NCBI GenBank assembly: GCA_964537035.1
Contig: CAZIAK010000013.1
Location: 4,826 to 68,825 of the forward strand
Reading direction: 5' to 3'
Source of the DNA: an uncultured Phycisphaerales bacterium
GTDB taxonomy: Bacteria > Planctomycetota > B15-G4
DNA: 64,000 nucleotides
A program made the translations under genes and the position numbers. Each line of letters begins with the position of its first letter. Position 1 is the first letter of the stretch. This document shows positions 3,851 through 57,728 of the stretch, piece after piece. Under the pieces are notes generated by a model. That model did not search any database. It was given only the letters and a program-made list of their open reading frames with translations, and was not told the origin of the DNA.

Positions 3851-4033
3851 CACGGCTCCTCGTCTCGCGGTCAGTCCGCGACGAGGTCCTCCCGCGAGGG
3901 CTCCGTCATCACCGACCGATTCGGGCGGGCTGCCAGAGATGGTCTCGTCTGTTCGGCGCCACGGCTTGAGCACCAATGCCCAGCCCCAGCTCCGGCCCAT
4001 CCCTCACCTGACCCCAACACGGGGCACGACCGG

Positions 4034-4870: not shown

Positions 4871-5307
4871 GGGATGTCCTCGGTTGAAGTGGGATCGCCT
4901 ACGCTCTCCACACCGGTCTCGATGTCGAGCGTCGGGACGTCCTCCCAGAGCGCGTCGAGGTCAAAGAACTCCCGACCTTCGTCGTCGAACAGATGAAGCA
5001 CCACCCCGTTGTAGTCGTAGAGCGACCACCGACCATCCGGGTCTTCGCTGGAGCTGTTGGGCACACCGGCCCCCAGCTCCTTGATGCCCATGCGGATCTC
5101 GTCACGTACCGCCCTCGCCTGACGACGGTTGTTCACCGTCGCCAGGACGAAGTACTCGGCGATGCCGAGGCGATCACCCACGTTGTAGACCTTGACGTCG
5201 CGAGCCAGGCGGTCCATCGCCAAGCGCGCGCAGGCCAGGGCCACGTCGCGGTAGTCAAAGCCCTCGGTCTCGTCGCCTGGAGAGGGAGGGGAGACGTCTG
5301 CGTCCAT
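4867..5307 (-). CDS. rsfS: Ribosome silencing factor RsfS (iojap-like)
   Basis: Typical RsfS core: [35 protein letters not shown] ... [26 protein letters not shown]. Confidence 0.9.
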
Positions 5308-5314
5308 CGACAGA

Positions 5315-7360
5315 TCAGCCGACCAGCAGGGGCGCGATGACCACGGAGACCACGCACATCAGCTTGAGCAGGATGTTGATGGACGGGCCAGAGGTGTCCT
5401 TGAAGGGATCGCCCACGGTGTCACCCACCACCGCGGCGCCGTGAGCATCGCTGCCCTTGCCGCCGTGCGCGCCACCTTCGATGTACTTCTTGGCGTTGTC
5501 CCAGGCACCGCCGGCGTTGGCCATGAAGATGGCCATCATCACACCGGAGATCAGGGCGCCAGCGAGCATGCCACCGAGCGCGCGAGGGTCGTAGAAGCCC
5601 ACCGCCAGCGGGGCCACCAGGGCCAGCACGCCGGGCAGCACCATCTCGCGGATGGAACCCTGGGTCGAGATCTCGACGCAACGTGCGGGGTCGGCCTCGG
5701 CCTTGCCCTCGAGCAGCCCCGGGATCTCGCGGAACTGACGGCGCACCTCGTCGATCATCTTGTTCGCTGCCCGACCCACAGCCGTCATGGTCATGGCCGA
5801 GAACAAGAAGGGCAGCATGCCGCCGATCAGGGCGCCCGCGATGATCTCGGGCTCGGTCAGATCGAGGGTGAAGCCAGCATCCTCCACGCGGATACGGGCC
5901 ACGTAGTTCTGGAACAGGGCCAAGGCGGTCAGGGCCGCGCTACCGATGGCGAAGCCCTTGCCAATGGCCGCCGTGGTGTTGCCCACAGCGTCGAGGGCGT
6001 CGGTGGCCTTGCGCACCTCGGGGGGGCAGCCGGCCATCTCGGCGATGCCGCCAGCGTTGTCAGCCACCGGGCCGTAGGCGTCCACACCAAGAGAGATACC
6101 CAGGGTCGAGAGCATGCCCACCGCGGCGATGGAGATGCCGTAGAGGCCAGCCAGGTTGTAGGCCGAGACGATGCCCACGGCGATGAGCAGCACCGGCGCC
6201 CAGGTGGACGACATGCCCACGGCCAGTCCCGTGATCAGGTTGGTGGCCGCACCCGTGTTGCTCTGCTCGGCGATGCGCTGCACCGGGCTCCGCTCCACGG
6301 CGGTGTAGTACTCGGTGATCTTGCCCACCAGCACACCCAGCGCGAGGCCGATGACCACCGCGAGCATGATCTGCTGATGCCCGATGACAGCTCCATTGTG
6401 CATGTAGCTCAGGGACATGCCGCCGGTGAGCGTCCAGGCCAGAGCGACGAAGATCAGCGAAGCCACGATCAGGCCGCGGAAGAGCGCGCCGTGCAGGTGC
6501 TTCTCGTCGTTGCACTTGACGAAGAAGCGACCGATGATCGAAGCCACGATGCCGAAGGCCGAGAGCAGCACGGGCAGCAGCACCAGGTCCTCGCCAGCGC
6601 CCGCCGTTGCGGCGGTGCCAGCGGCCACGAAGCCCAGGGCCATGGTGGCGATGATCGAGCCCACGTAGGACTCGAACAGGTCGGCACCCATGCCGGCCAC
6701 GTCGCCCACGTTGTCACCCACGTTGTCAGCGATGGTCGCCGGGTTGCGCGGGTCGTCCTCGGGGATGCCCGCCTCGAGCTTGCCCACCAGGTCGGCGCCC
6801 ACGTCGGCCGCCTTGGTGAAGATGCCACCGCCCACGCGAGCGAACAGCGCGATGCTGGACGCTCCCAGGCCGAAGCCGAAGAGCGAGCTCGGATCACCCT
6901 CGCCCCAGATCACGTAGAGGCCGGTGACACCCAGCAGGCCCAGGCCCACCACGGTCAGGCCCATGACCATGCCTGAGGAGAAGGCCACATCGAGAGCACC
7001 CGCGATACCACCCTTGCGGGCCGCCTCGGTGGTGCGCACGTTGGCGCCCGTCGCGGTCTTCATGCCGATCCAGCCCGCGAGGGCCGAAGCGATGGCACCG
7101 GCCACGAACGCGATGGCGGTCTTGCCACCGTCGCCATAGGCCATGAACAACAAGCCGGTGACGATCACGACGAAGACCGACAGCACCTTGTACTCGGTCA
7201 CCAAGAAGGCCATGGCTCCGTCGCGAATCTGACGGGCGATCTTCTGCATGACTTCATCGCCTTCACTCAGCCCCTTGATGCGGGCAGACATGAAGAAGGC
7301 GAAGACCAGCGCCACGGCAGAGACGATGATGGCGGTTGTGGGGTTGAGCAGGCTTTCCAT
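5315..7360 (-). CDS. hppA: Membrane-bound proton/sodium-translocating pyrophosphatase
   Basis: Hallmark motifs [26 protein letters not shown] and [16 protein letters not shown], with about 16 hydrophobic helices. Start trimmed to MESLLNPTT (ATG at 7360). Confidence 0.95.
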
Positions 7361-7482
7361 GACCTGTGCTGTCCTGAAGTTCGTGGAATATGGACGGGCG
7401 GGCAAAGGGCGCCAAGCATAGAAGCCCGGGGGGATGGGCGCAAGACATGCACCCCCCGCCATATCCGCCCGTTTTCACACCT

Positions 7483-36016: not shown

Positions 36017-37597
36017 CTAGAGCTGGAAGTGGGCCAGAATGCCATTGGACATGGAGCGCCCCGCGACCGCACCACCGTCGACGATGACGAACTGCACGTA
36101 GACATCAAACGGGCCGCCGCCACCAGCCACCGAACCGACCTGCACCTCACCGTTGCTGTCCGTGGTGAAAGGCCCGATGAGGAAGTCTGGGGCCGGCACC
36201 AGGATGCCACCGGAGAACGGCGCGAAGACCGAGTTGAGCGAGAAGACCAGGAATGCCGGAGCAGAGGGCAGGGCGTCGGTCAGGTTGAAGTCAGCGGTAC
36301 CGCCCGTGGACAGATCGCCACAGGCTTCGAGGGCAGGCTCCAGGCCGCCCGTACCCGCCAGAGCGTTGCCCAGGTCGGTGGCCACGGAGACGCAGCCCCC
36401 GGCCAGGGGCAGCTGAAAGTCAGCGATCACCGGGCGGTGGTCAGAGGCGATGCCCGACGCCAACTGGTAGTTGATAAAGAAGCCCGACAGCTCAGGAGGT
36501 TCGAGGCCAGAGGGCACCGGCGTCGAGTTGAAGACGATCGAGTGGCGCAGGGTGGCGATGCTGTCCTGCCAGGAGATGTAGTCGAGCTTGCTGGACGACT
36601 GGGTGCTGATGTTCCCGGTGAAAAACTCGGCAGAGGCATCGTAGGTCATGTCGGAACCATCCCTGTCCGTCCCGTCAGTTCCGCCCGTCACAGCCGCCCT
36701 CGTGATCCAGCTAGCTGGGCCCTTGCCAAAGACCCCTTCGTGCTCGTTCCAGTCGCCACCGGCCATGACCACCGTGTCGGCGGAGACCAGCGTGGTAGCG
36801 GCGGGGCTCAAGATCTTGCTGTTGGGGTCGGCGGCACCTCCTCCGAGACCGTTGAACATGGCGTCGATGTAGTAGGCGATGTTCTGGCCCGCCGCCACGC
36901 GCTGGTCGTGGTCGCTGCCGCCACCGCCAGCCTTCAGGTGGCTGTTGCCGATGACCAGGTCGCCCGTGTAGGTGCTGTCGGGAAGGTCAATCTCTGTGTG
37001 CATGAAGCCACGGATGCCGCCGTTGACACCGGGAGAGTAGAGGTCGCCCAACTGCAAGAAGTCGTTCAGCTGGTCGACGCCGTCACCGTTGAGGTCGGCG
37101 AAGGGGTAGCGGCTCATGATCACGTTGCGGTTGAAGCCATCGGTGATGCCGCTGACGAAGACGAAAGGTAGATCGTAGGACGGTGCGTAGAGCTGCACGT
37201 AGGCAGCCACCGCCGCGCCCCCGTTGAAGGGGTCGTTGCCGCCGTGCATGAACAGATCGAGCACGGTCTCCATGGTGCTCACGGAGTCAGCGCCGGATCC
37301 CGTCCCGTTACCCGAGTTGTCCGCGCACTCTTGGAGCAGCAGGACGTCGGGCTGGAAGGACGCCACGATCCGCGCCAGGGCCTCCCAGTTGGTCAGCCCC
37401 GCTGCCTTGGCGTTGGTCGAGCACAGACCGTCCTCGACGTTCCAGGTCATGACCCTTAGGTCGCTCGGATCGGTCTTGGTCCAGTCGCCAGCGGCCGGGT
37501 TCCATTGTGCCGCTGCGGGGAGGCTGACCAGACAAAGTGCGAGAGCGGCTGTCACGTAGCGCCACGACGCACGACGGAAGAACGAGAGAGACATCAT
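36017..37597 (-). CDS. Secreted endonuclease/exonuclease/phosphatase (EEP) family protein carrying the shared C-terminal module
   Basis: Signal peptide, EEP N-terminal motif LRVMTWNVEDG and C-terminal signature SDHRPVIADF. The last 88-115 aa match the tails of the CDSs at 43002-45326 and 57790-59874. Confidence 0.85.
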   Translation of the reverse strand: MMSLSFFRRASWRYVTAALALCLVSLPAAAQWNPAAGDWTKTDPSDLRVMTWNVEDGLCSTNAKAAGLTNWEALARIVASFQPDVLLLQECADNSGNGTGSGADSVSTMETVLDLFMHGGNDPFNGGAAVAAYVQLYAPSYDLPFVFVSGITDGFNRNVIMSRYPFADLNGDGVDQLNDFLQLGDLYSPGVNGGIRGFMHTEIDLPDSTYTGDLVIGNSHLKAGGGGSDHDQRVAAGQNIAYYIDAMFNGLGGGAADPNSKILSPAATTLVSADTVVMAGGDWNEHEGVFGKGPASWITRAAVTGGTDGTDRDGSDMTYDASAEFFTGNISTQSSSKLDYISWQDSIATLRHSIVFNSTPVPSGLEPPELSGFFINYQLASGIASDHRPVIADFQLPLAGGCVSVATDLGNALAGTGGLEPALEACGDLSTGGTADFNLTDALPSAPAFLVFSLNSVFAPFSGGILVPAPDFLIGPFTTDSNGEVQVGSVAGGGGPFDVYVQFVIVDGGAVAGRSMSNGILAHFQL

Positions 37598-37704
37598 CGA
37601 TGAGAACCAGTGTGGAGGACGTCGGGCCTGAAGAGGAGAGCGGGTGAGAAACCACCCGGTGCCCGACTGCGAGCACCATGAAAACTACCAAACAATTGCG
37701 ATTC

Positions 37705-37720
37705 CCGCCGGAATCGGCGG
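37705..37720 (-). terminator. Candidate intrinsic terminator after the giant lipoprotein gene (CCGCCG-gaat-CGGCGG)
   Basis: Perfect 6-bp stem with a tetraloop, about 90 nt downstream of the stop at 37810. On the minus strand it is followed by the relatively T-rich gaatcgcaattgtttggtagtttt. Confidence 0.45.
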
Positions 37721-37809
37721 CTCTGGGGCCCAGGCGACGAGGGGCGGCTCACAGCCGCACCTCAGCGTCTTGGCCTCACAGAGAATCTAGCCCAAGAATG
37801 ACACGCCGG

Positions 37810-40800
37810 TCAGTAGCGGGCCCGCAAGCGCACGAAGTCCACCTGTGGACGGGCCGAGTCGGGGCCGAAAGGAGCCAGCTGAGGCTGGGCGGAGAGGTCG
37901 AATTCGACCTGGAAACGCACCAGGGGGTAGCCATCCAGGTCGGTCAGGTCAGAGACCCAGGCCGTGGTGGTGGTCGTATCCGGTACGTCAGAACCAGCCA
38001 CGATCGGGTAGGCCCCCTGGAACAACAGCCGCACGTGGGCGTTGTCGCTGAGCACGTCCTCCAGGCCCAACTCGTCTTCAGGCGAGTCGACCTTGATGTC
38101 GTTGTACGGCGGGGCGTTGGGCCCAGGACCCAGCCCAGGATCATCGAACCCGGCGTCGATGACGTACCGAGCGGGCACGGGGGCTGCGGGCACCGCACCA
38201 CCGACCCGGACCCGGCCCTCTTCTCCGGCTGGCACAGCGCCCAGGGCCGCCACGTTGGACGTGCCGTGAATGGGCTCGAAGAACGGCGGCGTGACACCGC
38301 CAGAGCGCTGCCGCAGGGTCACTCCATTGAAGTTCAACCAGACCGAGACTCCGCGGCTCGAGGCACCGAAGGGAGGGGGCACCCGATCCACAGGGATCAC
38401 CGGCAGGCGATCGACCAGGTTGGTGGGCTCGAAGACGTCCTGCCCGTTGATGTTCGTCTTGAACGGCGTGCCGTCTGGCTCCACCAGCATGATCGAGAAC
38501 GGAATCTGCTGGTCCTTGTAGGTCGTCCCCGGAGTGTCCGGAAAATCAGGGTCTGTGGGCGGGTTGTTCTGCTCGAAGAACGAGCTGTTGTAGCCGTTGT
38601 ATGTCTCCATGACCTTGAACGGCTCAGGCTCAAGAACAACGGGCACCCCCGACGAATCTGCGCTGGCCATCATGGTCGTGTCGAACCAGGTCTGCCCCGA
38701 GCCTGCGGGATACTCGTTGCTGCTCGAGGGACCACTGGCCGTGCCGTCGCTGGGAATCATCGGCGGATAGCTGCCGTTGAGGATGAAGTAGCGATCAGCC
38801 AGCGGCGAGCCCACGCTGCCGGGCTCCGGGTCGTAGAACCTGTAGTGGAGCATGTCGATGTAGCGCAACTCGACGGGCAGGTTGTTCGGCGCCAGGAAGT
38901 CGTTGTGCTCGGACTGCAAGAACTTGTTGTCCCCCGTCCATTGGCCCAGCTTGGCAATGGCCCTCTGGCGAGCAAAGAGGAACGCTCCCTGTTCGATGTC
39001 GGCGACGCCATCGTCGCCGCCCTCCTGAAGTTGGACGAGCCCGAAGCCCCCCTGTCCACCGTCGCTTCTGGTCACCTCGTAGGTGAACGCCGACAGGCTG
39101 CCCGTACCGCCCGCAGCTGTGCGGGCATCTCGGCCGAAGCCACCAGACACTTCGATCGCTGCGCCGAGAGATCCGTCCTTGTCGGCGTAGCCGGCCGACC
39201 GGTGGCCCTGATCCGATTCGACGAGGATCTTTGCACCCGATTGGAGCACGACCGCGCCGCCGCTACCGCCGCCACCACCACCAGAGAAGGCGCTGGTCTT
39301 GACCACTTCGCCGCCACCGCCGTGACCACCGATGGCGTTGATCCGCCCGCTGCGGCCCACGACGATGTCGCCGAAGGAACGGAGCAAGACACTACCGCCG
39401 CCACCACCACCGCCGCCGCCCTTGGCGTCATACAGGGTGGGCGAGACCTGCACACCCAGCACCAACGCCGGGTAGTAGGGAGGCACGGGAAGCCCCGCGC
39501 CCAGGGCGTTGGTGCTCCAGATCGTGTGACGCATCGAGTCGATCCGGCTGCCACCGCCACCACCACCCTGTCCACCGATCAAGACCGACACCTCGCCGCC
39601 TGCCCCGATGAAGTCGTTGGAGTTGTCCCCGTCCTTGAACACGAGGTCGCCGCCTGGCGCGCCCGGCTGCTTGGCCGAGTGGCTGGCAACGGTGCCCTCC
39701 ATGTAGACGCACTGAATGGGCTTGTTGGGGAGCAGACCCGCGGCCACGTTCAGCTCGTTGCCGTAGAGAGCGTCGTTGATCTTGTTGTTCGTCAGGCACC
39801 GGCTGAAGGGGAACCAACTGCTGCTGCTCTCCACCTTGTAGACCCCCGCCCCTTCGTGAGACGTCTGCCCTCTGAAGTAGAAGCTGCCGCCGCCACCCCC
39901 GGGTGGCCTGTGGTGCTCATTGTTGCCAGAGTCCGAGACTTTGGGGAACCCACCACCTGCTGGGTCGTAGCCCAGCGTGCACAGCCCGCCCCAACCGCCG
40001 ACCGGCTGGAAGGTCACAGCGCCAGAAGGCTGCACCACCGGGCCCAACCCTCGGGCGCCCCGCTCTGGTGTGACGTACTGATCGATCGAGCCCGGGCCCT
40101 TGGGGTCGAACAGGGTCGGGTGGCTGTCGCCGCCCCGCCCACCGCCGGGTCCGCCGGGCCCACCTGGCACTGCCAGGAAGCCAGAATTGAAGGTGTCATC
40201 ACCCAGTCCATTGGTACCCGCCACGTCGAGCAAACCATGGATCTCGATGCGCCCGGTGGCCGTGATCTGCAGTGGCCGCGTGCCCTTGGCGACGACTCTC
40301 ACACCTTCGGGGATGATGAAATCCCTGAAAGTGAAGTGCCCACCGTTCACGACGACCTGCTGAGTCACGCCAGGAGTCTCTCCGCCCGGCAGGGGGAAGA
40401 CCTGCTGGTCAGTGTCCAGGAGCACGAAGTCGTAGAAGGCGCCCTTGAGGTTGTAGGACGTCTCGGGCGATCCCTTGGTGGTCTGGTGGCGGCTATGCGC
40501 GACCGTGGGGTTGAAAGCAGGAACGGGCACGGGCATGAAGTCGCCGAGCTGAACCGACTCGTCCACCCCCACCGAGGCCCGCAGGCCGCCCGTGGGCGTA
40601 CCACCCACTCCGGTCCCGGCCCATACAGCCGGCTGGCTGAGGCTCAGGGGCGTCGCCGATTCGAAGGCCTTGGTGAGAAACGTCTCCAAGAACACGTCGT
40701 CGATGAAAGGCCCAGGGTCATCGGTGGGTTCGGCTGTGCTGATGCGCAGCAGCTCGCGAGCACCCATGGGAGGCGCGGGCACCGACGCCATGCCGTCGTT

Positions 40801-42756
40801 GAAACCGTTCACGCCTACCAACGACGTGAAGATGTTGCGTTGCATCACCAAGAGCTCGGCGCCGATGGGCAACACGCCTCTGGGTTCGAGATGCACCACA
40901 GCGCCCGCGCTGTCATTCGTCGCGAGCTGGACATCCAAACCGAGGTTCATGGTGCCCACGGCGATGGCCCGGGGCTGGCCGGTGGAGATCAGCCCTTCCG
41001 ATCCGAGCAGACCCAGGTCGAGATCGATGAGGTCGACTCGTCCCGTGCTCCGATCGAGCGCCAGCAGCTGCCGAGGCGCCGTGAACACAGCGTCGATGTA
41101 GTCTCCCGGAAGGTTCATCACCACGTCTTCGACCAGGCCGCTGAAGAGCCCGTCACTGGCGGCGAACTGACCGTCCCCGTCGAGGTCGATGGGCTCCAGG
41201 CGAATCAGCGACGGGAAGGCGCCAGCGTTCAGCACGGCCAGGGCGTAGAGATGGCCGGAGGGCGCCGCGAGCAGATCGCGAATGTCGAGCAACGACGCCA
41301 CGCCGCCGGGGGTCAGGGGGGCACTGTGGAAGAGCGGTCCTGGTCCGTCCGCGACGGACAATCCGAGCAGGAGCGGCGCTCCGGGGGCGCCCTGCCCAGG
41401 TGCTGGACGGGAACGCACGACGCTGGGTGCCAGCTCTCGAATGGTGCGGTCCTCCCCATCGAAGGCCAGCAAGCGCCCGTCGAGGAGGGTGGTCAGGCCA
41501 ACCAGTTGGTCGTGGCCCGTATCGAGGGCGTCGACCTGACCCACCAACGCAGAGGCCGCTGGCAGGGCAAACGAGGGGTCTCCCAGCAGGTGGTCAATCA
41601 CCGTCAACTGCTGATTGCCCGCAGCGGGGTCCAGCAAGGCGAACAGCAGCGACGGGTCTTTTCCTGGGGACAGACTCGAAGGGACACCCGGAAGCAGCGC
41701 ACCGTTCTTGGCCACCAGGCCGTCCGGTCCGTCGTGCAAGAAGATGTCAGCACCGTCCGCAGCCGGGACAGCCAACGGCACCGGATCGAGCCCAACCAGC
41801 GCTTCGAAGGGCAGGTGCGAACCGAACGTGTCCTGGGCCACCTGCTGGGCCACGATCAAGCGGGTCGCCCGTGTCGACAGGAAGAACGTCGGATCGGAGA
41901 AGCCGTCTCCATCAAGATCGCTACCGATCAGGTTGGCCGTGGTGGGTGCCACCGGCTGATCATAGGTCAGCATGATGTCCGACGGACCGGGCGGATAGCC
42001 TGGCAGGCCCATGTCCGTGATGGAGGCACCAAACGTCGCCGGCTGAAAACTGTCGTTGCCGTCCGCAGGCACGCTGGTCAGAAGCGCCGGCGGAGCTCCT
42101 GCTCCCACGCCCTTTGGATAGTAGGCGGCCTCGTTGGACGTCGTGCCGAACAGCACCTCACCGCCAGGGCCCTGGAGGTTGATGATCTTGGACCCCACCG
42201 CCGTGGAGACCATGGCGTGGTAGGTACTCGCTGGCAGCAGGCCGGGGATGGCGGCTGCCGGCGCGGAGAGGTTTACCTGCAGCGGAGCGGTAGGCACGAA
42301 GGGTCTGAACTCGACCTCGTAGGTGCCAGCCGTCTCATCGACGATCAGGACGTAGTCGCCCTTGGCCAGAATCATCGGGTTCACTGCAGAGGCGTTCGCG
42401 TCAGCCGTGACCTCTGCCGGCGTGGTGAAGACCGGCAGGTTGGTGGACAGGAAAGGCCCCGAGGGCACACCGTCGAAACGGAAGACTATGGTCAGGTCAA
42501 GCGACGCACCCACGGTGGGTGGTGTCGCGGCGCCATCCTCGACCGGCGGCGTGGTCGTCGTCCCGAGCAGGGCCGATTTGAAGGCAAACCCAAGAAACTG
42601 CACCGCGTCGTCGGGCTCTGGCGCAGGCCCACCTCCCACAACGCCAGCACCACCACCGCCTCCACCGCCGCCACCGCCGCCACAGCCCACGAGCAGCAGG
42701 GCGAGCGCGAGACAGAAGGAACGACCGGGAACAACGGATAGCCACGACAGGCGCAT
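37810..42756 (-). CDS. Giant (1648 aa) surface lipoprotein with a poly-Gly tether and glycine-rich beta-helix-like repeats
   Basis: Start trimmed to MRLSWL..LALALLLVGCGGGGGGGGGGG (lipobox, AGGAG 7 nt upstream). Internal runs GGQGGGGGGS, KGGGGGGGGGSVLL and SGGGGGGSGGAVVL alternate with hydrophobic strands. No catalytic motif recognised. Confidence 0.8.
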   Translation of the reverse strand: MRLSWLSVVPGRSFCLALALLLVGCGGGGGGGGGGGAGVVGGGPAPEPDDAVQFLGFAFKSALLGTTTTPPVEDGAATPPTVGASLDLTIVFRFDGVPSGPFLSTNLPVFTTPAEVTADANASAVNPMILAKGDYVLIVDETAGTYEVEFRPFVPTAPLQVNLSAPAAAIPGLLPASTYHAMVSTAVGSKIINLQGPGGEVLFGTTSNEAAYYPKGVGAGAPPALLTSVPADGNDSFQPATFGASITDMGLPGYPPGPSDIMLTYDQPVAPTTANLIGSDLDGDGFSDPTFFLSTRATRLIVAQQVAQDTFGSHLPFEALVGLDPVPLAVPAADGADIFLHDGPDGLVAKNGALLPGVPSSLSPGKDPSLLFALLDPAAGNQQLTVIDHLLGDPSFALPAASALVGQVDALDTGHDQLVGLTTLLDGRLLAFDGEDRTIRELAPSVVRSRPAPGQGAPGAPLLLGLSVADGPGPLFHSAPLTPGGVASLLDIRDLLAAPSGHLYALAVLNAGAFPSLIRLEPIDLDGDGQFAASDGLFSGLVEDVVMNLPGDYIDAVFTAPRQLLALDRSTGRVDLIDLDLGLLGSEGLISTGQPRAIAVGTMNLGLDVQLATNDSAGAVVHLEPRGVLPIGAELLVMQRNIFTSLVGVNGFNDGMASVPAPPMGARELLRISTAEPTDDPGPFIDDVFLETFLTKAFESATPLSLSQPAVWAGTGVGGTPTGGLRASVGVDESVQLGDFMPVPVPAFNPTVAHSRHQTTKGSPETSYNLKGAFYDFVLLDTDQQVFPLPGGETPGVTQQVVVNGGHFTFRDFIIPEGVRVVAKGTRPLQITATGRIEIHGLLDVAGTNGLGDDTFNSGFLAVPGGPGGPGGGRGGDSHPTLFDPKGPGSIDQYVTPERGARGLGPVVQPSGAVTFQPVGGWGGLCTLGYDPAGGGFPKVSDSGNNEHHRPPGGGGGSFYFRGQTSHEGAGVYKVESSSSWFPFSRCLTNNKINDALYGNELNVAAGLLPNKPIQCVYMEGTVASHSAKQPGAPGGDLVFKDGDNSNDFIGAGGEVSVLIGGQGGGGGGSRIDSMRHTIWSTNALGAGLPVPPYYPALVLGVQVSPTLYDAKGGGGGGGGGSVLLRSFGDIVVGRSGRINAIGGHGGGGEVVKTSAFSGGGGGGSGGAVVLQSGAKILVESDQGHRSAGYADKDGSLGAAIEVSGGFGRDARTAAGGTGSLSAFTYEVTRSDGGQGGFGLVQLQEGGDDGVADIEQGAFLFARQRAIAKLGQWTGDNKFLQSEHNDFLAPNNLPVELRYIDMLHYRFYDPEPGSVGSPLADRYFILNGSYPPMIPSDGTASGPSSSNEYPAGSGQTWFDTTMMASADSSGVPVVLEPEPFKVMETYNGYNSSFFEQNNPPTDPDFPDTPGTTYKDQQIPFSIMLVEPDGTPFKTNINGQDVFEPTNLVDRLPVIPVDRVPPPFGASSRGVSVWLNFNGVTLRQRSGGVTPPFFEPIHGTSNVAALGAVPAGEEGRVRVGGAVPAAPVPARYVIDAGFDDPGLGPGPNAPPYNDIKVDSPEDELGLEDVLSDNAHVRLLFQGAYPIVAGSDVPDTTTTTAWVSDLTDLDGYPLVRFQVEFDLSAQPQLAPFGPDSARPQVDFVRLRARY

Positions 42757-42971
42757 CGTTGGGCTCCTGAGATGTCCTGTGAAACCAAGCCGGTTGGCGA
42801 GACGGCCGAAGTCAACGGCGGCCACCGTGGGCTGCCGACTGCCAGGCCGATGATCCGGCCCGAAACGCAAGCCAGCCCCGGGTGATCATCCGATCTCCCG
42901 GGGCCGGTGTCGAGGGTCTGGCGTCCCGAACCGACCGATCACCGATGTATCGACGATCGGCCGGCTCGGGG

Positions 42972-43001: not shown

Positions 43002-45326
43002 TCAGGGGGTCGTGCTCTTCACGCCATTGGTGGCGCTGAAGTTCCCGAGAATCGCCGGACCCGTGATCCAGGCCTGCCAGTAGATGTCGAAACAGCTCGG
43101 GAGCCCGGCCGGCCAGGTCGCCGACACGACGAACTCGCCAGCGAAGGTCGGGATCGCCGGCAGGATGAAGTCCGGACTCGGCACCAGGGTGCCGAACTTG
43201 AAGGGCGAGAAGATCCCGTTGAAGCCCGCGATCATGAAGAAGATCTCACCAGGCTGCATGTCGGTCAGGCTGACAGTGTAGTCGTCGCCAGCGGCACCTG
43301 AACCCGTGAAGCCCAGACGGGGCTCAACGAAGCCGGGGCCGGGGCCCGCCTTGGCGTTGTCCAGGTTCTCCCACTCAGCGACGCCAACGTAGAGCAGCAC
43401 GTTGTAGTCCTCGTCTGAGCCAAGAGCAGCACAGTCGTCGAAGGAGCCGTCACCATCCGTGTCGTAGATGATCGACGCAGAGATGACCACGCCACCCATG
43501 GCCCGGTTGTCGTTGGTATCCAGGGCAGAGTTGTTCATCGCGCCATGAGCGACGTCGCTCATGTTGCCCGACCAGCTCGCGCCCGACGACACCGAGTTGC
43601 TGTCGGCGATGCCCATGAACGTGATCAGGTAATCGAGATCACTGTTCTCTCCGTGGAAGATGTCGCCGGTCTTGAAGACCAGGTCGAGCTCGTAGGAGAA
43701 GGTGGCCGGATCATAGATGGCGCGGACCAAGCCCGTGGCATCGTCGCCCAGTGGCATGGGATCGTTGGTGTGCAACGAAGCCAGGAAGTACACGTTGCCC
43801 ACCGAGTCGAACATGGGAGCCGAGAAGGAGGGCCCAAGAGGCACGCCACCGGTGAGGGTGTTCAGCGGGATCAGGTTTCCGATGGGAGTCCCACCGGGAC
43901 CGTCCAGGATCTCCTTGCCCGTGACGCCGTCGTTCCAGCCAGCCAGGGTCCAGGTCTGGGCGCCGGTGACAGCATCGGTCTTGCACACGCCCACAGCGTT
44001 GACGGGCCAGTCAGAACCGCCATCGAGGGGGTGATCAAAGACAGCAGCAACGAGCAGGTCACCGTTCTGGTCGACGCGCACCGAAGCCTGGGAGTTGCCA
44101 CCTTGGAAGGCCGTCTGGCTGTGGTAGTGATCGAACTCAAGGGTGCCAGCCGGGCCCAGCGTGGTGAAGCCGTCGCTGTTGTCGGTGATGCTCGCAGGCA
44201 GCTGGCAGGTGGCCGTGCCGGTGACGCCACCGTTGGCGTCGAGACCCCACAAGGCGATGTGGTCCTTCATGCCTGAGACCGCGTCTTCGCCGATGGTGCT
44301 ACCGATGCCGGCCGTGCTGTTCAGCGTGCCGCCGAAGTTGTCGGAGTTGTAGCCCTGCACACCGCGGGTGCCGCTGAGGACAGCCGAGATGAACGCGCCA
44401 GTGGCGTTGACACTACCCGCTTCACCGCGCACGAACTGCGTGAGGAAGTTGGTGCCCAGGTAGAAGTCAGCGTTGTTGGTGTTGAGCGCCGGGGGCAGGT
44501 TGTTCGGCGTGGTGTGCACATCGGCCGAGTTGATCACGTAGTGGCCCAAAGCGCCCAGATCCTTCTGACCTACCGCGTCATCGCTGATCACGTTGAGCAC
44601 GGCGCCGTTACGGGCGGTGGTGGACACACTGAAGATGTTGTTGCCCGGGAGAACGGTCAGACCGCCGCCACCCGTGGCACCAAAACCGTCGGCGCGGAAG
44701 AAGATCGAGCCCTCTTCGTTCACCGAGCCAATGCCCAGCGCTGCGAGGTTGCTGGCCGCGTTGCCACCGTTGGTGGCAGCCATGACCTTGCTCACGTACA
44801 GACGACCAGGGTTGCCCGGATCGAAGTTGACCGTGGCACCGATCAGGCCGGTGTAGCTGGACAGGGCGTCGGTGGTGCCGAACTCGGCCATGACCACACC
44901 GAACTGGTTCATGTCACAGGGTGCGGAGACAGTGCCGGGGGCCGTGTGCACCGCAGGGTCGTTGTTCACACCAGAGCCGGCGGTCTTCCAGACCTGGTAG
45001 CTCTTCGACGAGGTGGTGCCGACCTTCTGCAGGCGGCTGATGCCTTGGGCCGACAGCAGGCTGGCGTTGAAAGCGGTGCTCGACTTGCTCGACTTGAGCA
45101 GGGGAGCGATGCCGTAGGTCACACCCCAGCGGGTCTCGAAGGGGTTCAGATCGACGACGAAGTCATCGGTCTGCTCCGATCCGTTGGTGGCAGTAGCGTC
45201 ATCCCAGGGAGTGGTGGCGTCACCGCCGGAGCAGGTCGTCAGGGCGACGCTGTCCTGAGCAGTGGCCGCAGGGGCGAGGAGAGCACCCGCCGCGAGAAGC
45301 GCGATGGAACGAAGACTCGGTGACAT
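43002..45326 (-). CDS. Secreted protein (774 aa), unknown function, carrying the shared C-terminal module
   Basis: Start trimmed to MSPSLRSIALLAAGALLAPAATAQD (GAGGA 8 nt upstream). Rich in G/T/S/N/D. The last 88 aa align with the EEP and FG-GAP tails (PFKFGTLVPSPDF...). Confidence 0.75.
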   Translation of the reverse strand: MSPSLRSIALLAAGALLAPAATAQDSVALTTCSGGDATTPWDDATATNGSEQTDDFVVDLNPFETRWGVTYGIAPLLKSSKSSTAFNASLLSAQGISRLQKVGTTSSKSYQVWKTAGSGVNNDPAVHTAPGTVSAPCDMNQFGVVMAEFGTTDALSSYTGLIGATVNFDPGNPGRLYVSKVMAATNGGNAASNLAALGIGSVNEEGSIFFRADGFGATGGGGLTVLPGNNIFSVSTTARNGAVLNVISDDAVGQKDLGALGHYVINSADVHTTPNNLPPALNTNNADFYLGTNFLTQFVRGEAGSVNATGAFISAVLSGTRGVQGYNSDNFGGTLNSTAGIGSTIGEDAVSGMKDHIALWGLDANGGVTGTATCQLPASITDNSDGFTTLGPAGTLEFDHYHSQTAFQGGNSQASVRVDQNGDLLVAAVFDHPLDGGSDWPVNAVGVCKTDAVTGAQTWTLAGWNDGVTGKEILDGPGGTPIGNLIPLNTLTGGVPLGPSFSAPMFDSVGNVYFLASLHTNDPMPLGDDATGLVRAIYDPATFSYELDLVFKTGDIFHGENSDLDYLITFMGIADSNSVSSGASWSGNMSDVAHGAMNNSALDTNDNRAMGGVVISASIIYDTDGDGSFDDCAALGSDEDYNVLLYVGVAEWENLDNAKAGPGPGFVEPRLGFTGSGAAGDDYTVSLTDMQPGEIFFMIAGFNGIFSPFKFGTLVPSPDFILPAIPTFAGEFVVSATWPAGLPSCFDIYWQAWITGPAILGNFSATNGVKSTTP

Positions 45327-45593
45327 GCTTGAAATCCTCAAGGGTGTGAGTGGGTCTTGTTGAGTGATCGGGTCATGCCTGACGTCGTCGAAGCCGCGCC
45401 ACGACAGGGTCAAGCGAGGGAGTTCTCCCGGAACGCTACGTTGCCCGGATGAACGAGCCATGAAGAGCCCGAATCCAGAAGATCGCAATGCCCGCGGGAC
45501 AGCCAAATGTACCCGAAGAATGGCACTCGGTGGAGATTGGTCCCCCGCCTGTAGCAGCTCCCGCGACTCGGCCCGGCTGCCATCGGCCAATCC

Positions 45594-48245
45594 TCAGCCA
45601 GAGGGCCTTCGGCCTGGTCTGGCACGAGGGCTCGCCGTGAGCGGATCTTCAGGCCAGGAGTGCTTGGGGTAGCGCCGACGCAAGTCCTTGCGTACCAACG
45701 GGTAGGTGTTGGCCCAGAAGCTGGCCAGATCGTCCGTCACCTGCTGTTCACGCATATTCGGGCCCAGCAGGTGCAAGACCACGGGCACCCTCCCCCGGGC
45801 CAGCCGTGGCGTTTCTTTCAGCCCGAACATCTCCTGAATCCGCACTGCCAAGCGGGGTGCCTGGGCACGGTCATACGTCAGGGCGATGCGGCTCCCGGAG
45901 GGCACAGCCACCCGCTCGGGCGCCTCACGGTCGAGAATGGCGAGCAAATGATGCCCCAGCAGACCCCGAACCAGATCCAGCAGGGGAGCCTTGCGCAGCT
46001 CCGCGAAGGAACGGCGCCCGTGGCACAGACTGGGCAGCAGGTCGGCCAGGGCACGCTCATCCAGGGCTGGCCACTCGAACTCGGGCAGCCACTCGGCGAC
46101 CCAGGCCACCCGATCCAAGAAGGTCTTCAGCTCTCGCCGTTCCAGATCGAGTGCCCCGTGAAGGTCAGCTCTGGCCGCCTCCTCCAGGGCCTGGGCCAGC
46201 CCCTGGGCGTCCTTGCCTGGCACCGAATGTTCCTCGAGGAGCAGGTCGTCGAACAGGACCCGGCGGCGCACTCCTACCGACAGACGTTCCCGATCGAAGA
46301 CCACGATCTCCTCCTCGGTCAGCCGCTCCTCTGGGAGCCAGTCCCGCTCGACCGCAGCCGCCAGGCGGACGAGGGCCTCACCGCTTTTTCTCGCCGAGCC
46401 CTCCAGGGACAGGCACAGAAACAGCGGTGCCTCTCGGACAATGCTCGAAGCATCGACGCGCACGCCCCGGCCCCCCACCATCACGGCCCGGTCTGAACCC
46501 GGCCCGCGGCGACGCGCCAGGCGATCAGGGAACGCAGCGAGCAAGGCCCGCCCCAGCATGTGGTCTGTACACTCGCTCTCGGACCCACGCCCTGACGTCT
46601 GGGAGCCCGAGCCCCTCCGTTCACCGAGCTGTTGCGGCGCCGTCTCGCTGCCAGCGGTGCCCATGGGGACGTCTTGGTCGCGGGCCTCGAGCAGGCGGGT
46701 CAACTCCTGGGCGACGCGCAGGATCTGCTGCGCTGCCCCGTGGTTCCAGCCCGGGCCCCCACCACCGGCCCCTGCGCCGCCAGGCCCGCCCCGTCGCCGC
46801 CCCCCTGAAGCCTGGGCCTCCAGCTGATTCAGGCGATCGGTCAGGTCAGAGTTGCCGCTCGTACCGGCTCGGCGCACCCGGGGCGCCGGGTCTCTCTCGG
46901 ATAACAACGCGCAGGCCAGGGCAGCACGTCGGGTCACGCCGTGGGCCACCCCCTCCAGGCCGAGCCGGGCCAACCGTGGAGGCAGGGGCAGTCGGGAGAG
47001 GGCCTGTCCCACAGGGGTCACCCGCTCACCGTCCCAGGCTCCCAGACGGCGCAGCAGCTGATCGGCCAGGGCCAAGGAGGCGGCGCTGGGAGGTTGCAGC
47101 CAGGGCAGGGCCCCGGGGTCAGCTTCACCCCAGGCGCGCAGCTGCAGCACCGGGCCAGCCAGGTCGAGGCGCTGAATCTCGGGCGCCAGCACTTCGGCCA
47201 GCGAGCGCTGCTGCCCCTGGGTCCAGAGCCGGGCACAAAACCCTGGCGCGGTCCGCCCAGCCCGGCCAGCCCGCTGGTCCGCCGAGGCCTTGCTGATGGG
47301 CAACACCGCCAGACGATCGAGCCCCACCGCCGGATCGAACTCTGGGATGCGCGCCAGGCCCGTGTCGACCACCGCCGTCACACCCTCGATGGTCACGCTG
47401 GTCTCGGCCACGTTGGTGGCCAGGATGACCTTGCGCCGAGGCCCGGAGCGCAGCACCCGGTCCTGCTGGTCGCCGGGCAACTCGCCGTACAGGCGGCAGA
47501 GGTCCAGATCGTGCTGCCGAGCCAGGTCTCCCAGGGCCCGTTCGCTGGCGGCGATGGCCCCCCGCCCGGGCAAGAAGACGAGCACATCCCCCTCGCTGCG
47601 GCCGAGCACCGCCGCCACACCCCTGAGCACCTGCTCGCCCAGGGGGCCGCTGGGCGCCGAGGGCAGGTAGGCGATCTCCACCGGATGACTGCGCCCCTCA
47701 CAGCGCACCACCGGGCAGTCCAGGGCCGCAGCGATCCCCTCCGCGTCCAGGGTGGCTGACATGATCACCAGGGGCAGGTCGGGGCGCAGCTCATCACGCA
47801 GCCGACGCACCATGGCCAGGGCCAGGTCTCCGTCGAGATGCCGCTCGTGAAACTCGTCGAAGATCACCGCGCCCACGCCAGAGAGAAACGGATCCCCCTG
47901 CAGGCGGCGGACGAACAGGCCCTCGGTGACCACCTCGATGCGCGTGGCCTGGCTCACCTTGCGGTCGAAGCGCACCCGGTAACCCACCTCGTCACCGAGC
48001 CGCCCGCCCCGCTCAGCCGTCATGCGCCGAGCCGCCGCCCGGGCTGCCAGCCGACGGGGCTCGAGCATGACCACCGCGCCGTCCCCCGCGAGGCCAGCAT
48101 CAAGCAGCGCGGGCGGCACCCGGGTGGTCTTGCCCGCGCCCGTGGGAGCCACCAGCACCACGCACCCCGCGCAGCTCAGCTGACTGACCAGATCAGCCAG
48201 CACCTCATCGATAGGCAGGGGGATCGGCTCAGGTCGGGGACACAT
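45594..48245 (-). CDS. hrpB: ATP-dependent RNA helicase HrpB (DEAH-box)
   Basis: APTGAGKTT (motif I), DEFHER (DEAH-type motif II), SATL, TNVAETS and QRAGRAGR, plus the HA2 and HrpB C-terminal regions. Start trimmed to MCPRPEPIPLPIDEVL (ATG at 48245). Confidence 0.9.
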   Translation of the reverse strand: MCPRPEPIPLPIDEVLADLVSQLSCAGCVVLVAPTGAGKTTRVPPALLDAGLAGDGAVVMLEPRRLAARAAARRMTAERGGRLGDEVGYRVRFDRKVSQATRIEVVTEGLFVRRLQGDPFLSGVGAVIFDEFHERHLDGDLALAMVRRLRDELRPDLPLVIMSATLDAEGIAAALDCPVVRCEGRSHPVEIAYLPSAPSGPLGEQVLRGVAAVLGRSEGDVLVFLPGRGAIAASERALGDLARQHDLDLCRLYGELPGDQQDRVLRSGPRRKVILATNVAETSVTIEGVTAVVDTGLARIPEFDPAVGLDRLAVLPISKASADQRAGRAGRTAPGFCARLWTQGQQRSLAEVLAPEIQRLDLAGPVLQLRAWGEADPGALPWLQPPSAASLALADQLLRRLGAWDGERVTPVGQALSRLPLPPRLARLGLEGVAHGVTRRAALACALLSERDPAPRVRRAGTSGNSDLTDRLNQLEAQASGGRRRGGPGGAGAGGGGPGWNHGAAQQILRVAQELTRLLEARDQDVPMGTAGSETAPQQLGERRGSGSQTSGRGSESECTDHMLGRALLAAFPDRLARRRGPGSDRAVMVGGRGVRVDASSIVREAPLFLCLSLEGSARKSGEALVRLAAAVERDWLPEERLTEEEIVVFDRERLSVGVRRRVLFDDLLLEEHSVPGKDAQGLAQALEEAARADLHGALDLERRELKTFLDRVAWVAEWLPEFEWPALDERALADLLPSLCHGRRSFAELRKAPLLDLVRGLLGHHLLAILDREAPERVAVPSGSRIALTYDRAQAPRLAVRIQEMFGLKETPRLARGRVPVVLHLLGPNMREQQVTDDLASFWANTYPLVRKDLRRRYPKHSWPEDPLTASPRARPGRRPSG

Positions 48246-56111: not shown

Positions 56112-57623
56112 TCAGTTGTCTTGTGTGAGGCTTCCGGCTGTCCAGTTGTCTGTGCCTGTTGCTTTGCGGGTGTTGCCTCCGCTGACTGTGCTGTGGACGC
56201 CTGACGCTAGGTTGGATCGGCCTCCTCCTGCCGTCGAATAGTCGGCTGTGGCCTGGTTGCCTTCGCTGGGGGTTGCGCCGCCACCGGCCAGGACTGTGGC
56301 GAACTCCCCGGAGGCCACGCCGAAGCGGCCTCCCAATGCGACGGCCCCGACGCCGGAGGAGGCATTGGTGCCGGCTCCGGCCCGGTTGTCGCTGCCTCCC
56401 ACCACCACGGACGTCGCGCCTGTGGCCCGGTTGTTCTCACCCCCCACCACGACCGATCCATCACCAGCAGCCTCTCCGAAGGCGCCGGAGACTGCTGTGG
56501 AGCTCACGCCAGTGGCGCGCATCTGTTCGCCCCCCACAACGCACGAGGTCTTGCCCGCGGCCACGTTCGACTCGCCTGAGCACACATGGGCGTAGTCCCC
56601 GGGCACCAGATTATAGGCCCCTCCCGCTGCGGTCGCGTGCATGCCGGAGGCGCAGTTGTAGCCGCCACCCAAGACGGCTGAGCTCTCGCCCATGGCCTGG
56701 CATTCCTCCCCACCCAGGACCGCCGAACGCAGCCCACCGGCCGAGCCGTTGAAGCCGCCGGCCACCGTCGAGTAGGGAGCGCTGACCGTGTTCGTGTCGC
56801 CGCCGAGCAGACCGCCAAAGCTTGAGTAGGTGTGCCACTTGCCGATCACCAGATTGTGCGAGCCGGTGCGGTCGTTGGCACCGAACGGGAAGGCCTCGTC
56901 GTAGCCGATGATCAGATTGCCCAGGCCATTCGTTGTGGTGACAGATCCATCGACAGACGACGAGTCGGCTGGGTATCCGTTCGTGGCCCGCAGCCCGCTC
57001 ACCAGCTGCAGGTTCGCGCCGCTGATACGAATGGTCTTGCGCAGTCCACCCTGACCATCATCCAGCCAGACCAGCGAGAAGTGGGAAAGGATCTGGTTCA
57101 GGCTCTCCCCGCCGGGAGCGCCTGCCTTCGCGGAGCTGCTCGGCGCGCCCGCATCGCGGAAGAACCGCCCCCCATGGGACCAGAAGATCACGTCCGTGCC
57201 GTCGTTGTGCAGCACGAGTTCTTCCGCGCCCAGGCCGTCCAGGTCCATGCGTTCAGCGGTCACTCCCTGCCCACCGTCACCCAGCCCCAACGCGCCCGTG
57301 GCCTCCACCAACCCACCGGCACCGTCCCCCAACAGCGCCCGATTCTCCGTCGCCGAAGTGAGATACAGATCCGCATGCCCGTCCCCGTCGAGGTCGCTGA
57401 CCAGCACATCCTGAACCCCCGTAACCCTCACAGACTGCAGCCCGTCCTGCACCAGGGGCACAAACCGCCCGCGCCCAAGATTCACCGCCACAGCAAGGCT
57501 CCCATCCGCCCCCAAGAGCAGCTTGTCAGCCAACCCATCCCCCGTGAGTTCAACCAACCGCAGCGAAGGTACAGGCTGCACCTGCATCAACAAAGAACCC
57601 ACAAGCAGCAAGGACAAGAACAT
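56112..57623 (-). CDS. Secreted chimeric protein: N-terminal FG-GAP/VCBS repeats plus C-terminal YadA-head/Hep_Hag-like Gly-rich repeats
   Basis: Signal MFLSLLLVGSLLMQ (ATG at 57623, GAGG 5 nt upstream). FG-GAP motifs (LTGDGLADKLL, SDLDGDGHADLYL). Then about 14 tandem units of the type S.V.GG..N.A.G.. Confidence 0.75.
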   Translation of the reverse strand: MFLSLLLVGSLLMQVQPVPSLRLVELTGDGLADKLLLGADGSLAVAVNLGRGRFVPLVQDGLQSVRVTGVQDVLVSDLDGDGHADLYLTSATENRALLGDGAGGLVEATGALGLGDGGQGVTAERMDLDGLGAEELVLHNDGTDVIFWSHGGRFFRDAGAPSSSAKAGAPGGESLNQILSHFSLVWLDDGQGGLRKTIRISGANLQLVSGLRATNGYPADSSSVDGSVTTTNGLGNLIIGYDEAFPFGANDRTGSHNLVIGKWHTYSSFGGLLGGDTNTVSAPYSTVAGGFNGSAGGLRSAVLGGEECQAMGESSAVLGGGYNCASGMHATAAGGAYNLVPGDYAHVCSGESNVAAGKTSCVVGGEQMRATGVSSTAVSGAFGEAAGDGSVVVGGENNRATGATSVVVGGSDNRAGAGTNASSGVGAVALGGRFGVASGEFATVLAGGGATPSEGNQATADYSTAGGGRSNLASGVHSTVSGGNTRKATGTDNWTAGSLTQDN

Positions 57624-57728
57624 GGCAACCTCAAAGGTGACAAGAGAAGGGATCCCCAAAGCAGTCTATCAGCAGCACAAATCGCTGCCCGCCCCCCTCG
57701 AGCCCGGTGCCTCCAGGAGATCCCACGC

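Follow-up and report, generated by a model that had tools for sequence, protein, structure and literature searches.

The 1648-aa protein encoded on the minus strand of the window (the whole 64,000-nucleotide stretch of DNA from an uncultured Phycisphaerales bacterium that was analysed here) is best explained as a lipid-anchored, tethered, non-enzymatic scaffold or binding (adhesin-like) protein of the envelope or surface that is transcribed alone, a reading to which we give a probability of about 0.6. Its central part, a glycine-rich core at aa 775-1250, has no counterpart among described families or solved structures, and the oligo-glycine runs inside it are predicted from the model to be ordered structural parts of fixed length. 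The gene, its parts and the open reading frame opposite it are as follows (window positions, with the basis of each assignment in parentheses):

37810-42756, minus strand: 1648-aa lipoprotein gene (ORF list, translation, GC3, full-length homologues)
42682-42756, minus strand: predicted signal peptide and lipobox L-V-G-C, aa 1-25 (sequence read directly)
42628-42681, minus strand: tether G11-AG-VV-GGG, aa 26-43 (imperfect GGN repeat)
41857-42624, minus strand: putative Ig-like (Big_5/SbsA-type) region, aa 45-300 (PF13205 matches of relatives)
40435-41856, minus strand: family-specific middle region, aa 301-774 (per-region identity)
39007-40434, minus strand: conserved Gly-run core, aa 775-1250 (nine fixed-length Gly-rich blocks, AlphaFold2, profile)
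37813-39006, minus strand: post-core and C-terminal beta-rich region, aa 1251-1648 (AlphaFold2, f5 relatives, order consensus)
37678-42741, plus strand: 1687-aa shadow ORF, not a gene (GC3 of 0.68 below GC1 of 0.79, 13% Arg, homologues all in the minus frame)

The minus-strand ORF extends from 37810 to 42870, with its stop codon at 37810-37812, and initiation at the ATG at 42756, which has an AGGAG located 8-12 nt on its 5' side, gives a 1648-aa product with the N-terminus MRLSWLSVVPGRSFCLALALLLVGC-GGGGGGGGGGG-AGVVGGG. The earlier note took this gene to be real and on the minus strand, and the measurements bear it out: GC3 is 0.80 in the minus frame against 0.68 in the plus frame, where it is lower than that frame's own GC1, and more than 170 homologues, the full-length ones 45-93% identical, align with the minus-strand translation and all correspond to that frame. 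Arg-rich translations are typical of shadow ORFs in high-GC DNA, and the plus-frame product is such a translation, so on these three grounds the opposite-strand ORF is ruled out as the true gene. A G+C content of 65-70%, at which shadow ORFs are often long and translations often rich in Gly, Ala and Arg, does invite the thought that the whole gene is a high-G+C artefact, or that its glycine runs are low-complexity disordered linkers. That reading is already refuted and we give it practically no weight: besides the frame statistics and the hundreds of minus-frame homologues, the internal glycine runs are constant in length across 86 sequences, most of them are modelled with a pLDDT of ~87-97, and of the ~4726 candidate coding frames in this genome (68% G+C) just 5 have at least three runs of G5 or longer, three of these being paralogues of this same gene, so the glycine-run architecture is not a product of chance. 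Frames in which a lipobox Cys is followed by at least three glycines number only four in the genome.

By the lipoprotein signal criterion that we applied (basic n-region, hydrophobic h-region and [LVI][ASTVI][GAS]C), the N-terminus MRLSWLSVVPGRSFCLALALLLVGC is a lipoprotein signal with the lipobox L-V-G-C at aa 22-25, and Cys25 is the predicted lipidated residue. The genome encodes both Lgt (PF01790 at C12:76657-77448, 169.9 bits) and the signal peptidase II LspA (PF01252 at C1:56212-56637, 109.9 bits), each above its cut-off. Of 51 family members, 44 have the Cys with G3-G11 after it and the other seven are truncated gene calls; the combination of lipobox and oligo-glycine tether that was first noticed in this one sequence is thus a conserved property of the family. 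The underlying GGN tract is an imperfect repeat (TRF: 42642-42687, period 9, 5.1 copies, 83% matches). The suggestion that it could change length by slippage is plausible over evolutionary time only, given that the aligned tether block ranges from 4 to 27 residues among homologues and that a 6-nt indel separates the tether from that of a 93%-identical relative. A subfamily of ~1070 aa has an ordinary signal peptide in place of the lipobox, which means that the core does not need a lipid anchor for its role.

The region that follows the tether probably consists of two Ig-like domains. Five homologues (P0118, P0057, P0163, P0169 and P0176) match PF13205 in the corresponding N-terminal domain with 26.6-39.7 bits against a cut-off of 23.6 bits, and BLASTP of the window protein against P0118 is collinear and weak (E 0.018); the Ig-like assignment is made through these relatives, the window protein itself lying below Pfam significance with no PF13205 match at E <= 10. 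Its position after the signal, the 'V.S..PadG' pattern at the domain starts and a putative role as an extracellular stalk are shared with Big_5 (SbsA-type) surface proteins, but the likeness covers at most ~250 of the 1648 residues and says nothing on the core. The middle region, aa 301-774, is the least conserved part of the protein (median 41% identity), has no family match in Pfam or NCBIfam at E up to 10, and for the most part lacks a counterpart in the 1000-1400-aa relatives at order level; some f5 proteins match it from ~aa 493 onward. At the other end, ~200 C-terminal residues are conserved in the order-level consensus, and f5 relatives align with the final ~100 (aa 1546-1648). The protein closes with a conserved ...VDFVRLRARY, and nearly all relatives have a terminal Y, F or W after an alternating basic/hydrophobic strand. 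AlphaFold2 models this C-terminal region with a pLDDT of 86.8 and a pTM of 0.63, and Foldseek finds no neighbour for the model in the PDB (best E-value 0.6).

The core is the best conserved region, with a median identity of 61% against 41-45% in the family-specific regions. All six of the glycine motifs quoted in the earlier note are present (aa 865-878, 951-961, 1059-1073, 1112-1127, 1143-1151 and 1158-1179), but the region to which they belong spans aa 775-1250 rather than roughly 880-1200. The comparison of glycine-tract lengths among relatives that the same note proposed separates two behaviours: the N-terminal tether varies as described above, whereas the nine internal blocks have constant length in 51 of 51 family sequences and 35 of 35 order-wide sequences. 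Other fixed features are a Cys987/Cys1016 pair, the motif DGDxxNDF (aa 1042-1049), and invariant D, N, E, Q, R, S and aromatic residues; as far as the sequence can be read, these and the Cys pair do not make up a recognisable catalytic set. The AlphaFold2 model of the core (pLDDT 87.2, pTM 0.87), which we read together with the sequence and DSSP, has pLDDT values of 87-97 over most glycine blocks, where DSSP assigns neither helix nor strand; short, rung-like strands come in runs after the glycine segments. About 75% of the core is ordered and neither helix nor strand, and strand makes up ~20%. The core has no neighbour in the PDB by Foldseek (best E 5.5), and sequence searches of the PDB returned only linker or low-complexity noise, whether the query was the protein alone, the core, or a profile of the full family or of the core. 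No Pfam family was matched by more than one member when 35 core sequences were scanned with hmmscan at E <= 10, a tblastn search of 50,697 phage records with the core gave no match, and four segments of the protein have no phage family match in PHROGs.

What conformation might the glycine runs adopt? Few known structures contain ordered polyglycine segments; examples are ALK/LTK, phage gp38, snow-flea antifreeze protein and Obg. That the runs here are packed polyglycine-II (PGII) helices, forming a lattice or sheet with a flat, rigid binding face, is a tentative idea that falls short of an even chance; it concerns conformation and is compatible with the scaffold or binding reading. It draws on the presence of at least six runs of 5-10 residues whose lengths are invariant and whose glycines nearly so, on their order in the model without helix or strand, on the resemblance of the 'G-run then hydrophobic strand' pattern to that of ALK (AGGGGGGGGATYVF), and on Foldseek matches in BFVD, with probability 1.0 and E down to 2e-6, to viral collagen-like or glycine-rich proteins; since their TM-scores are only 0.2-0.36 and composition could drive them, we treat these matches as a lead only. 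The comparison with the ALK/LTK glycine-rich domain (PF12810; 7mzw, 7n00, 7nx0) is instructive: that domain, whose solved ectodomain combines a TNF-like sandwich with a PGII lattice, is extracellular too, a hydrophobic strand comes after each of its several G5-G9 runs, and its glycine segments are likewise ordered and neither helix nor strand, but the core is not a member of it, with an hhalign probability of 2.3% for the core profile, the Foldseek best E quoted above from a PDB that includes ALK and LTK entries, and no Pfam family match for 35 members at E <= 10 (assuming that Pfam-A contains PF12810). The ALK query fragment was verified against 7mzw and 7n00 (E 5e-122). Phage S16 gp38, a long-tail-fibre adhesin with a polyglycine-II sandwich, and snow-flea antifreeze protein are binding proteins built on rigid, fixed-length glycine-rich motifs; the core also has fixed-length glycine-rich motifs, but it has no Foldseek PDB match to them and differs in size and architecture. 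Our literature search on polyglycine II or glycine-rich domains in bacteria found nothing relevant. The note's own description, a solenoid or beta-helix, survives in the rung-like strands after the glycine segments and fails in that three quarters of the core is neither helix nor strand and no PDB beta-helix is found by Foldseek. In a more specific version, a classical right-handed parallel beta-helix with Gly-rich turns, of the pectate-lyase or autotransporter-passenger type, would form the core and a membrane translocator the C-terminus, so that the protein would be an autotransporter-like adhesin with a lipid anchor. This would suit the large secreted product, the rung-like LQITATGRIEIHGLLDVAG and GGAVVLQSGAKILV, and the chain end, where an alternating strand leads to a final aromatic residue in a way that resembles the beta-signal of outer-membrane proteins. 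We nonetheless think it very improbable: strand makes up only ~20% of the core, neither a Pfam beta-helix nor an autotransporter family (PF03797 included) is matched, Foldseek finds no significant beta-helix or autotransporter structure in the PDB (EspP scores E 6.1), and the confident C-terminal model (pLDDT 87), of a visibly Pro- and Asp-rich sequence, has no barrel neighbour.

The source genome has three copies of the family, 40 of 41 related genomes have a family match, and full-length copies occur in every genome of the same GTDB family except one, which is 58% complete; all members come from metagenome-assembled genomes. The full-length family is multi-copy and specific to this uncultured Planctomycetota order, across which the core is found. 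A core profile search gave 1203 cluster representatives; the broader core domain is patchy in the phylum, and a compact form occurs in a giant protein of Desulfobacterota. The homologues are all named 'hypothetical protein' and have no Pfam domain, while extra domains are found in remote members (Big_5 in 11 of 45, C-type lectin in 4 of 45), in keeping with an extracellular, modular setting. The Desulfobacterota protein, the 7437-aa WP_304511247.1 of Desulfopila sp. IMCC35008 ('Ig-like domain-containing protein'), has the compact core in 14 matched stretches (hhalign probability 98.6%, E 4.8e-16); it shares with the window protein a ~280-aa compact core whose order of motifs is unchanged and which is unannotated there as well, but lacks the insert of aa 881-1040 and, in a giant adhesin-like protein, carries the core in tandem between acidic D-rich repeats, where here a single copy sits on a lipoprotein.

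The neighbouring features are:

36017-37597, minus strand: secreted EEP-fold protein, 526 aa, with a C-terminal address domain (PF03372 match)
37657-37716, minus strand: pair of terminator-like hairpins within the 212 nt that separate the stop of the giant gene from the start of the EEP gene (consensus scan; weak, the number of sites in the region not exceeding that in shuffles)
43002-45326, minus strand: secreted 774-aa protein with the same C-terminal address domain (translation)

The size of 774 aa given before for the last of these is correct, since the 862-aa ORF truly starts at its Met89. The C-terminal ~120 aa of the EEP protein match 91 places in the source genome and the ~125 C-terminal aa of the 774-aa protein at least 59 places per genome; this address domain is absent from the 1648-aa protein. 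The earlier note placed the three genes in one surface island and thought of adhesion, prey or host contact and matrix binding. In favour of an operon or joint module of EEP enzyme, giant lipoprotein and 774-aa protein for contact with prey, host or matrix, they are adjacent and co-oriented here and in the 93%-identical relative, and lie within 13 kb of one another in GCA_021604805.1 (the last as a 772-aa homologue). Neither order nor orientation is kept, however: in GCA_021604805.1 the giant gene is inverted relative to the EEP gene, with a nucleoside transporter between these two, and HrpB separates the giant gene from the 772-aa homologue; G006 and G009 have their EEP and 774-aa homologues together on one contig and their giant-gene copies on others; and the paralogues stand in unrelated gene contexts. 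Judged by gene order, the trio is not a conserved unit, and with gaps of 245 and 212 nt around the giant gene, the hairpin pair after it and housekeeping genes (SppA, HrpB) on the flanks, a joint module seems to us a poor prospect. The note's remark that no catalytic motif can be recognised is supported: the whole protein and three segments found no family in Pfam or NCBIfam at E up to 10. A hidden enzyme might still be the functional part, with the glycine core a mere spacer, since large planctomycete surface proteins often join enzymes with binding modules, aa 301-774 and the post-core aa 1251-1450 have no assignment, and the structure models cover the core and the C-terminal region. This is improbable too: those are the least conserved regions (41-45% identity), most of their length has no match in order-level relatives, where it is chiefly the core and the two ends that are retained, and they have no Pfam, NCBIfam, PHROG or PDB-sequence match at relaxed thresholds. 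From the sequence evidence, a non-enzymatic role is the most likely.

The scaffold or binding protein that we favour would be made and built as follows. The gene would be transcribed alone, not in an operon with its secreted neighbours, and the product would be exported, lipidated at Cys25 and freed of its signal peptide. The segment G11-AG-VV-GGG would act as a flexible leash, and one or two Big_5-type Ig-like domains with the family-specific middle region as a stalk, carrying a rigid core of ~475 aa (aa 775-1250). In the core, short beta-strand rungs may alternate with glycine segments packed so closely that there would be no room for a side chain or a change of length; sequence, DSSP and pLDDT together suggest that a Cys987-Cys1016 disulfide probably stabilises it, as probably does the acidic DGDxxNDF loop, which may bind Ca2+. 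One or more beta-rich C-terminal domains would end the protein. A bolder proposal, possible but one we would not count on, is that the core is an undescribed fold, a fixed-length polyglycine stack in which a PGII-like sheet lies on a short beta-solenoid and presents a flat, rigid surface to a periodic ligand. If it were true, there would be a new and widespread bacterial class of PGII domains with more than 1200 cluster representatives, used singly on planctomycete lipoproteins and in tandem in a giant adhesin of Desulfobacterota, with polysaccharide, mineral, ice or the envelope of another cell as candidate ligands.

Nine length-invariant and confidently modelled glycine blocks are maintained over deep divergence without a family or structure match; solving the core would yield either a new fold or a much larger PGII class. 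Members of the family rank among the largest conserved envelope proteins in an uncultured order of Planctomycetota, and to learn what they do would help to explain how the surface of these bacteria is made or put to use.

The minus-strand open reading frame spans window positions 37810-42870, and translation from the ATG at 42756, which has AGGAG 8-12 nt upstream, gives a giant protein of 1648 aa whose N-terminus reads MRLSWLSVVPGRSFCLALALLLVGC, followed by eleven glycines and then AGVVGGG. This bears out the giant lipobox protein with an 11-Gly tether described in the earlier note, and every glycine motif listed there was found in its place in the protein. The opposite strand holds a 1687-aa ORF that carries the signature of a shadow ORF, because its GC1 exceeds its GC3 and its product is 13% Arg; GC3 values of 0.80 for the minus frame versus 0.68 for the plus frame likewise agree with the initial opinion that it was unlikely to be the real gene. 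The G+C content of the window is ~64-72%, but the glycine runs of the giant protein are no by-product of base composition: among ~4726 candidate coding frames in this genome, just five show three or more runs that reach at least G5, the giant gene and its two paralogues accounting for three of the five, and only four lipobox frames have at least three glycines after the Cys.

Regions of the giant protein (window 37810-42756, minus strand)
aa 1-25: signal peptide with lipobox; the genome encodes both Lgt and LspA
aa 26-43: tether, from the TRF repeat and aligned block lengths
aa 45-300: probably Big_5-type Ig-like domains; relatives pass the Pfam threshold at the corresponding place, with weak collinear alignment
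aa 301-774: middle region, family-specific and the least conserved part (median identity 41%)
aa 775-1250: core, the best conserved part (median identity 61%)
aa 865-876, 920-924, 951-958, 1061-1070, 1112-1122, 1143-1150, 1158-1168, 1204-1208 and 1232-1239: the nine glycine-rich blocks of the core
aa 1251-1648: variable stretch, then an order-wide conserved domain that ends ...PQV(D/N)xVRxRxx(Y/F) in nearly all relatives

The giant protein itself has no Pfam match over aa 45-300, and it is from its relatives that this region is judged probably to consist of Big_5-type (PF13205) domains. A model of the C-terminal part (aa 1236-1648; pLDDT 86.8, pTM 0.63) has no neighbor in the PDB (best E 0.6), so that an outer-membrane barrel there is unsupported, the terminal aromatic residue notwithstanding.

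The internal glycine runs are structural. All nine blocks have identical length in every sequence of both the full-family alignment (51/51) and the order-wide core alignment (35/35), and in an AlphaFold2 model of aa 740-1300 built with 49 sequences (pLDDT 87.2, pTM 0.87) most of them lie in stretches with pLDDT of ~87-97. DSSP assigns the blocks in this model to neither helix nor strand, and several lead directly into three strands, the first of 6 residues and the other two of 3 residues each (as in KGGGGGGGGG-SVLLRS-FGD-IVV and in GGGGGGSGG-AVVLQS-GAK-ILV). Such strands resemble the rungs of the solenoid or beta-helix that had been suggested for this region, but strand makes up only about one-fifth of the core, and neither Foldseek against the PDB nor Pfam returned a beta-helix or autotransporter structure or family. 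Cys987, Cys1016 and the motif DGDxxNDF (aa 1042-1049) are invariant in the family, and the invariant residues form no recognizable catalytic set, as the original reading of the sequence had also found.

The glycine-run core is structurally unusual and is without a family or structural match. A Foldseek search of the PDB with the core model found nothing (best E 5.5), and when 35 core sequences were compared with Pfam at E ≤ 10, no two of them matched the same family. The motif pattern had suggested the glycine-rich domain of ALK/LTK, but its structures 7mzw and 7n00 were not found by fold, although both are present in the library, since an ALK fragment used as query matches them at E about 5e-122; hhalign of the core profile against the ALK fragment gave a probability of 2%. 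Predicted viral structures gave ten matches at E ≤ 1e-3 with TM-scores of only 0.2-0.36 ("collagen-like" proteins of giant viruses, a PA14 protein of a prasinovirus and uncharacterized phage proteins), which count as a lead only, and sequence searches of phage genomes and PHROG families found no match.

The genome encodes three copies: the giant gene, a full-length copy with 54% identity at C4:81440-86344 and a contig-edge copy on contig C49. Matches to the giant protein are present in 40 of 41 related genomes; all genomes of the same GTDB family but one (58% complete) have near-whole-query copies, often two or three, and other families of the order have proteins of 1000-1400 aa, often in tandem arrays, with mainly aa 775-1250 in common. 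A protein database search gave 55 full-length relatives and, with the core, 173; all of them come from MAGs labelled "Planctomycetota bacterium", bear the name "hypothetical protein" and have no precomputed Pfam domain save an occasional Big_5. A core-only profile built from 35 sequences matched 1203 of 1.84 billion cluster representatives at E ≤ 1e-3 (130 at E ≤ 1e-30) and, with the limit set at E ≤ 1e-10, had matches in 39 of the 251 Planctomycetota genomes sampled; other domains in 45 remote members were Big_5 (11), C-type lectin (4) and MopE (1). An order-level subfamily of ~1070 aa (P0095, P0096, P0106, P0107 and P0111-P0116) has an ordinary signal-peptidase-I type signal (...ALA/GG) without lipobox or Gly tether, so that this core serves in free as well as in anchored proteins. 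At a distance of 2.8 kb from the paralogue on C49 there is a different giant lipoprotein (C49:21716-26344, minus strand; 1543-aa frame), whose G10 tether and Ig-like N-terminal part are combined with Gly-run rungs of compact form (e.g., IAGGGGGGGGSIELGAGEGMVIFQGAQVSAAGGPGGG) and the ending ...LRNAGF; this protein is probably distantly related, the link being missed by BLAST under its low-complexity filter.

The single core match outside the phylum is WP_304511247.1, a 7437-aa protein of Desulfopila sp. IMCC35008, which the core profile matches in 14 tandem stretches (aa about 4000-7400, period ~455 aa) with acidic D-rich repeats in between. The one unit that was read over its whole length is a compact core of ~280 aa with the same motif series; it aligns with the core profile (hhalign probability 98.6%, E 4.8e-16) around an insert specific to the planctomycetes, and has no Pfam or PHROG match.

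The tether, unlike the internal blocks, varies in length, its aligned block being 4 to 27 residues among homologues; the slippage suggested in the earlier note is plausible over evolutionary time. The tether is encoded by an imperfect GGN repeat (TRF 42642-42687, period 9, 5.1 copies, 83% matches), and in a different sample a relative with 93% identity reads C-G11-VVGGG versus C-G11-AG-VVGGG in the window, a 6-nt indel. A Logan contig of that relative (SRR26541437, positions 1-60) ends inside the lipobox/GGN tract, and assembly from short reads probably breaks at this repeat; of 51 family gene calls, 7 are truncated at the N-terminus. Elsewhere in the genome (C94:2022-2126, minus strand) an 809-aa frame with an unrelated body starts with a signal peptide and lipobox (LCLLLVGC) much like those of the giant protein, plus a G8 tether, and a signal-plus-tether cassette may be common to a few large lipoproteins.

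Neighboring features in the window
36017-37597, minus strand: 526-aa secreted EEP-fold protein, with a C-terminal ~120-aa domain at 36017-36400
43002-45326, minus strand: 774-aa secreted protein, with the same domain at 43002-43430
45326-45594: region where an 862-aa ORF overlaps the HrpB stop by 1 bp
56112-57659, minus strand: 515-aa protein with FG-GAP repeats and PF21300 (LbR_Ice_bind, grass antifreeze beta-roll; 32.9 bits, cut-off 30)

The order, all on the minus strand, is SppA, EEP protein, giant gene, 774-aa protein, HrpB. The first 88 codons of the 862-aa ORF are probably untranslated, the signal peptide beginning at Met89 to give 774 aa. A functional surface island formed by the giant gene and its two secreted neighbors, as once proposed, is not borne out. 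The 93%-identical relative retains giant-EEP-SppA, but in GCA_021604805.1 the same genes lie nearby with the giant gene and EEP in opposite relative orientation to that in the window, a nucleoside transporter separating the two, and HrpB between the giant gene and the 772-aa homologue; two other family genomes have EEP and 774-aa homologues on one contig and giant copies on others. One paralogue neighbors sulfatases and a GH20-domain (Glyco_hydro_20b) protein, and order-level tandem copies lie in one case near type II secretion or pilus genes and in another among unrelated genes. Gaps of 245 and 212 nt flank the giant gene, which has a weak promoter-like site before it and two terminator-like hairpins after it, such sites being no commoner here than in shuffled sequence. 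From these comparisons of synteny, paralogue context and transcription signals we conclude that the neighborhood is inherited synteny and not a functional trio. The C-terminal domain of the two neighbors, absent from the giant protein, has no Pfam match at E ≤ 10 and has 91 matches in this genome with the EEP query and at least 59 with the 774-aa query; most related genomes have similar numbers.

Overall, the original observation is confirmed and its interpretation supported in part only. The giant protein would be exported, cleaved from its signal peptide and lipidated at Cys25, with the tether as a leash and an Ig-like stalk bearing a rigid core; a putative Cys987-Cys1016 disulfide and the acidic DGDxxNDF loop may stabilize this core, whose glycine segments would be packed too tightly for side chains or length changes. 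That these segments are polyglycine-II helices is a tentative idea, less likely than not, and would be compatible with a scaffold or binding role. It is this role, at the envelope or surface, that we favor (probability roughly 60%), because there is no recognizable catalytic set and because the core is accompanied by Ig-like and lectin domains and acidic repeats and is used in tandem in a giant adhesin-like protein. The giant protein is a further member of an uncharacterized planctomycete lipoprotein family that is real, conserved and unannotated.
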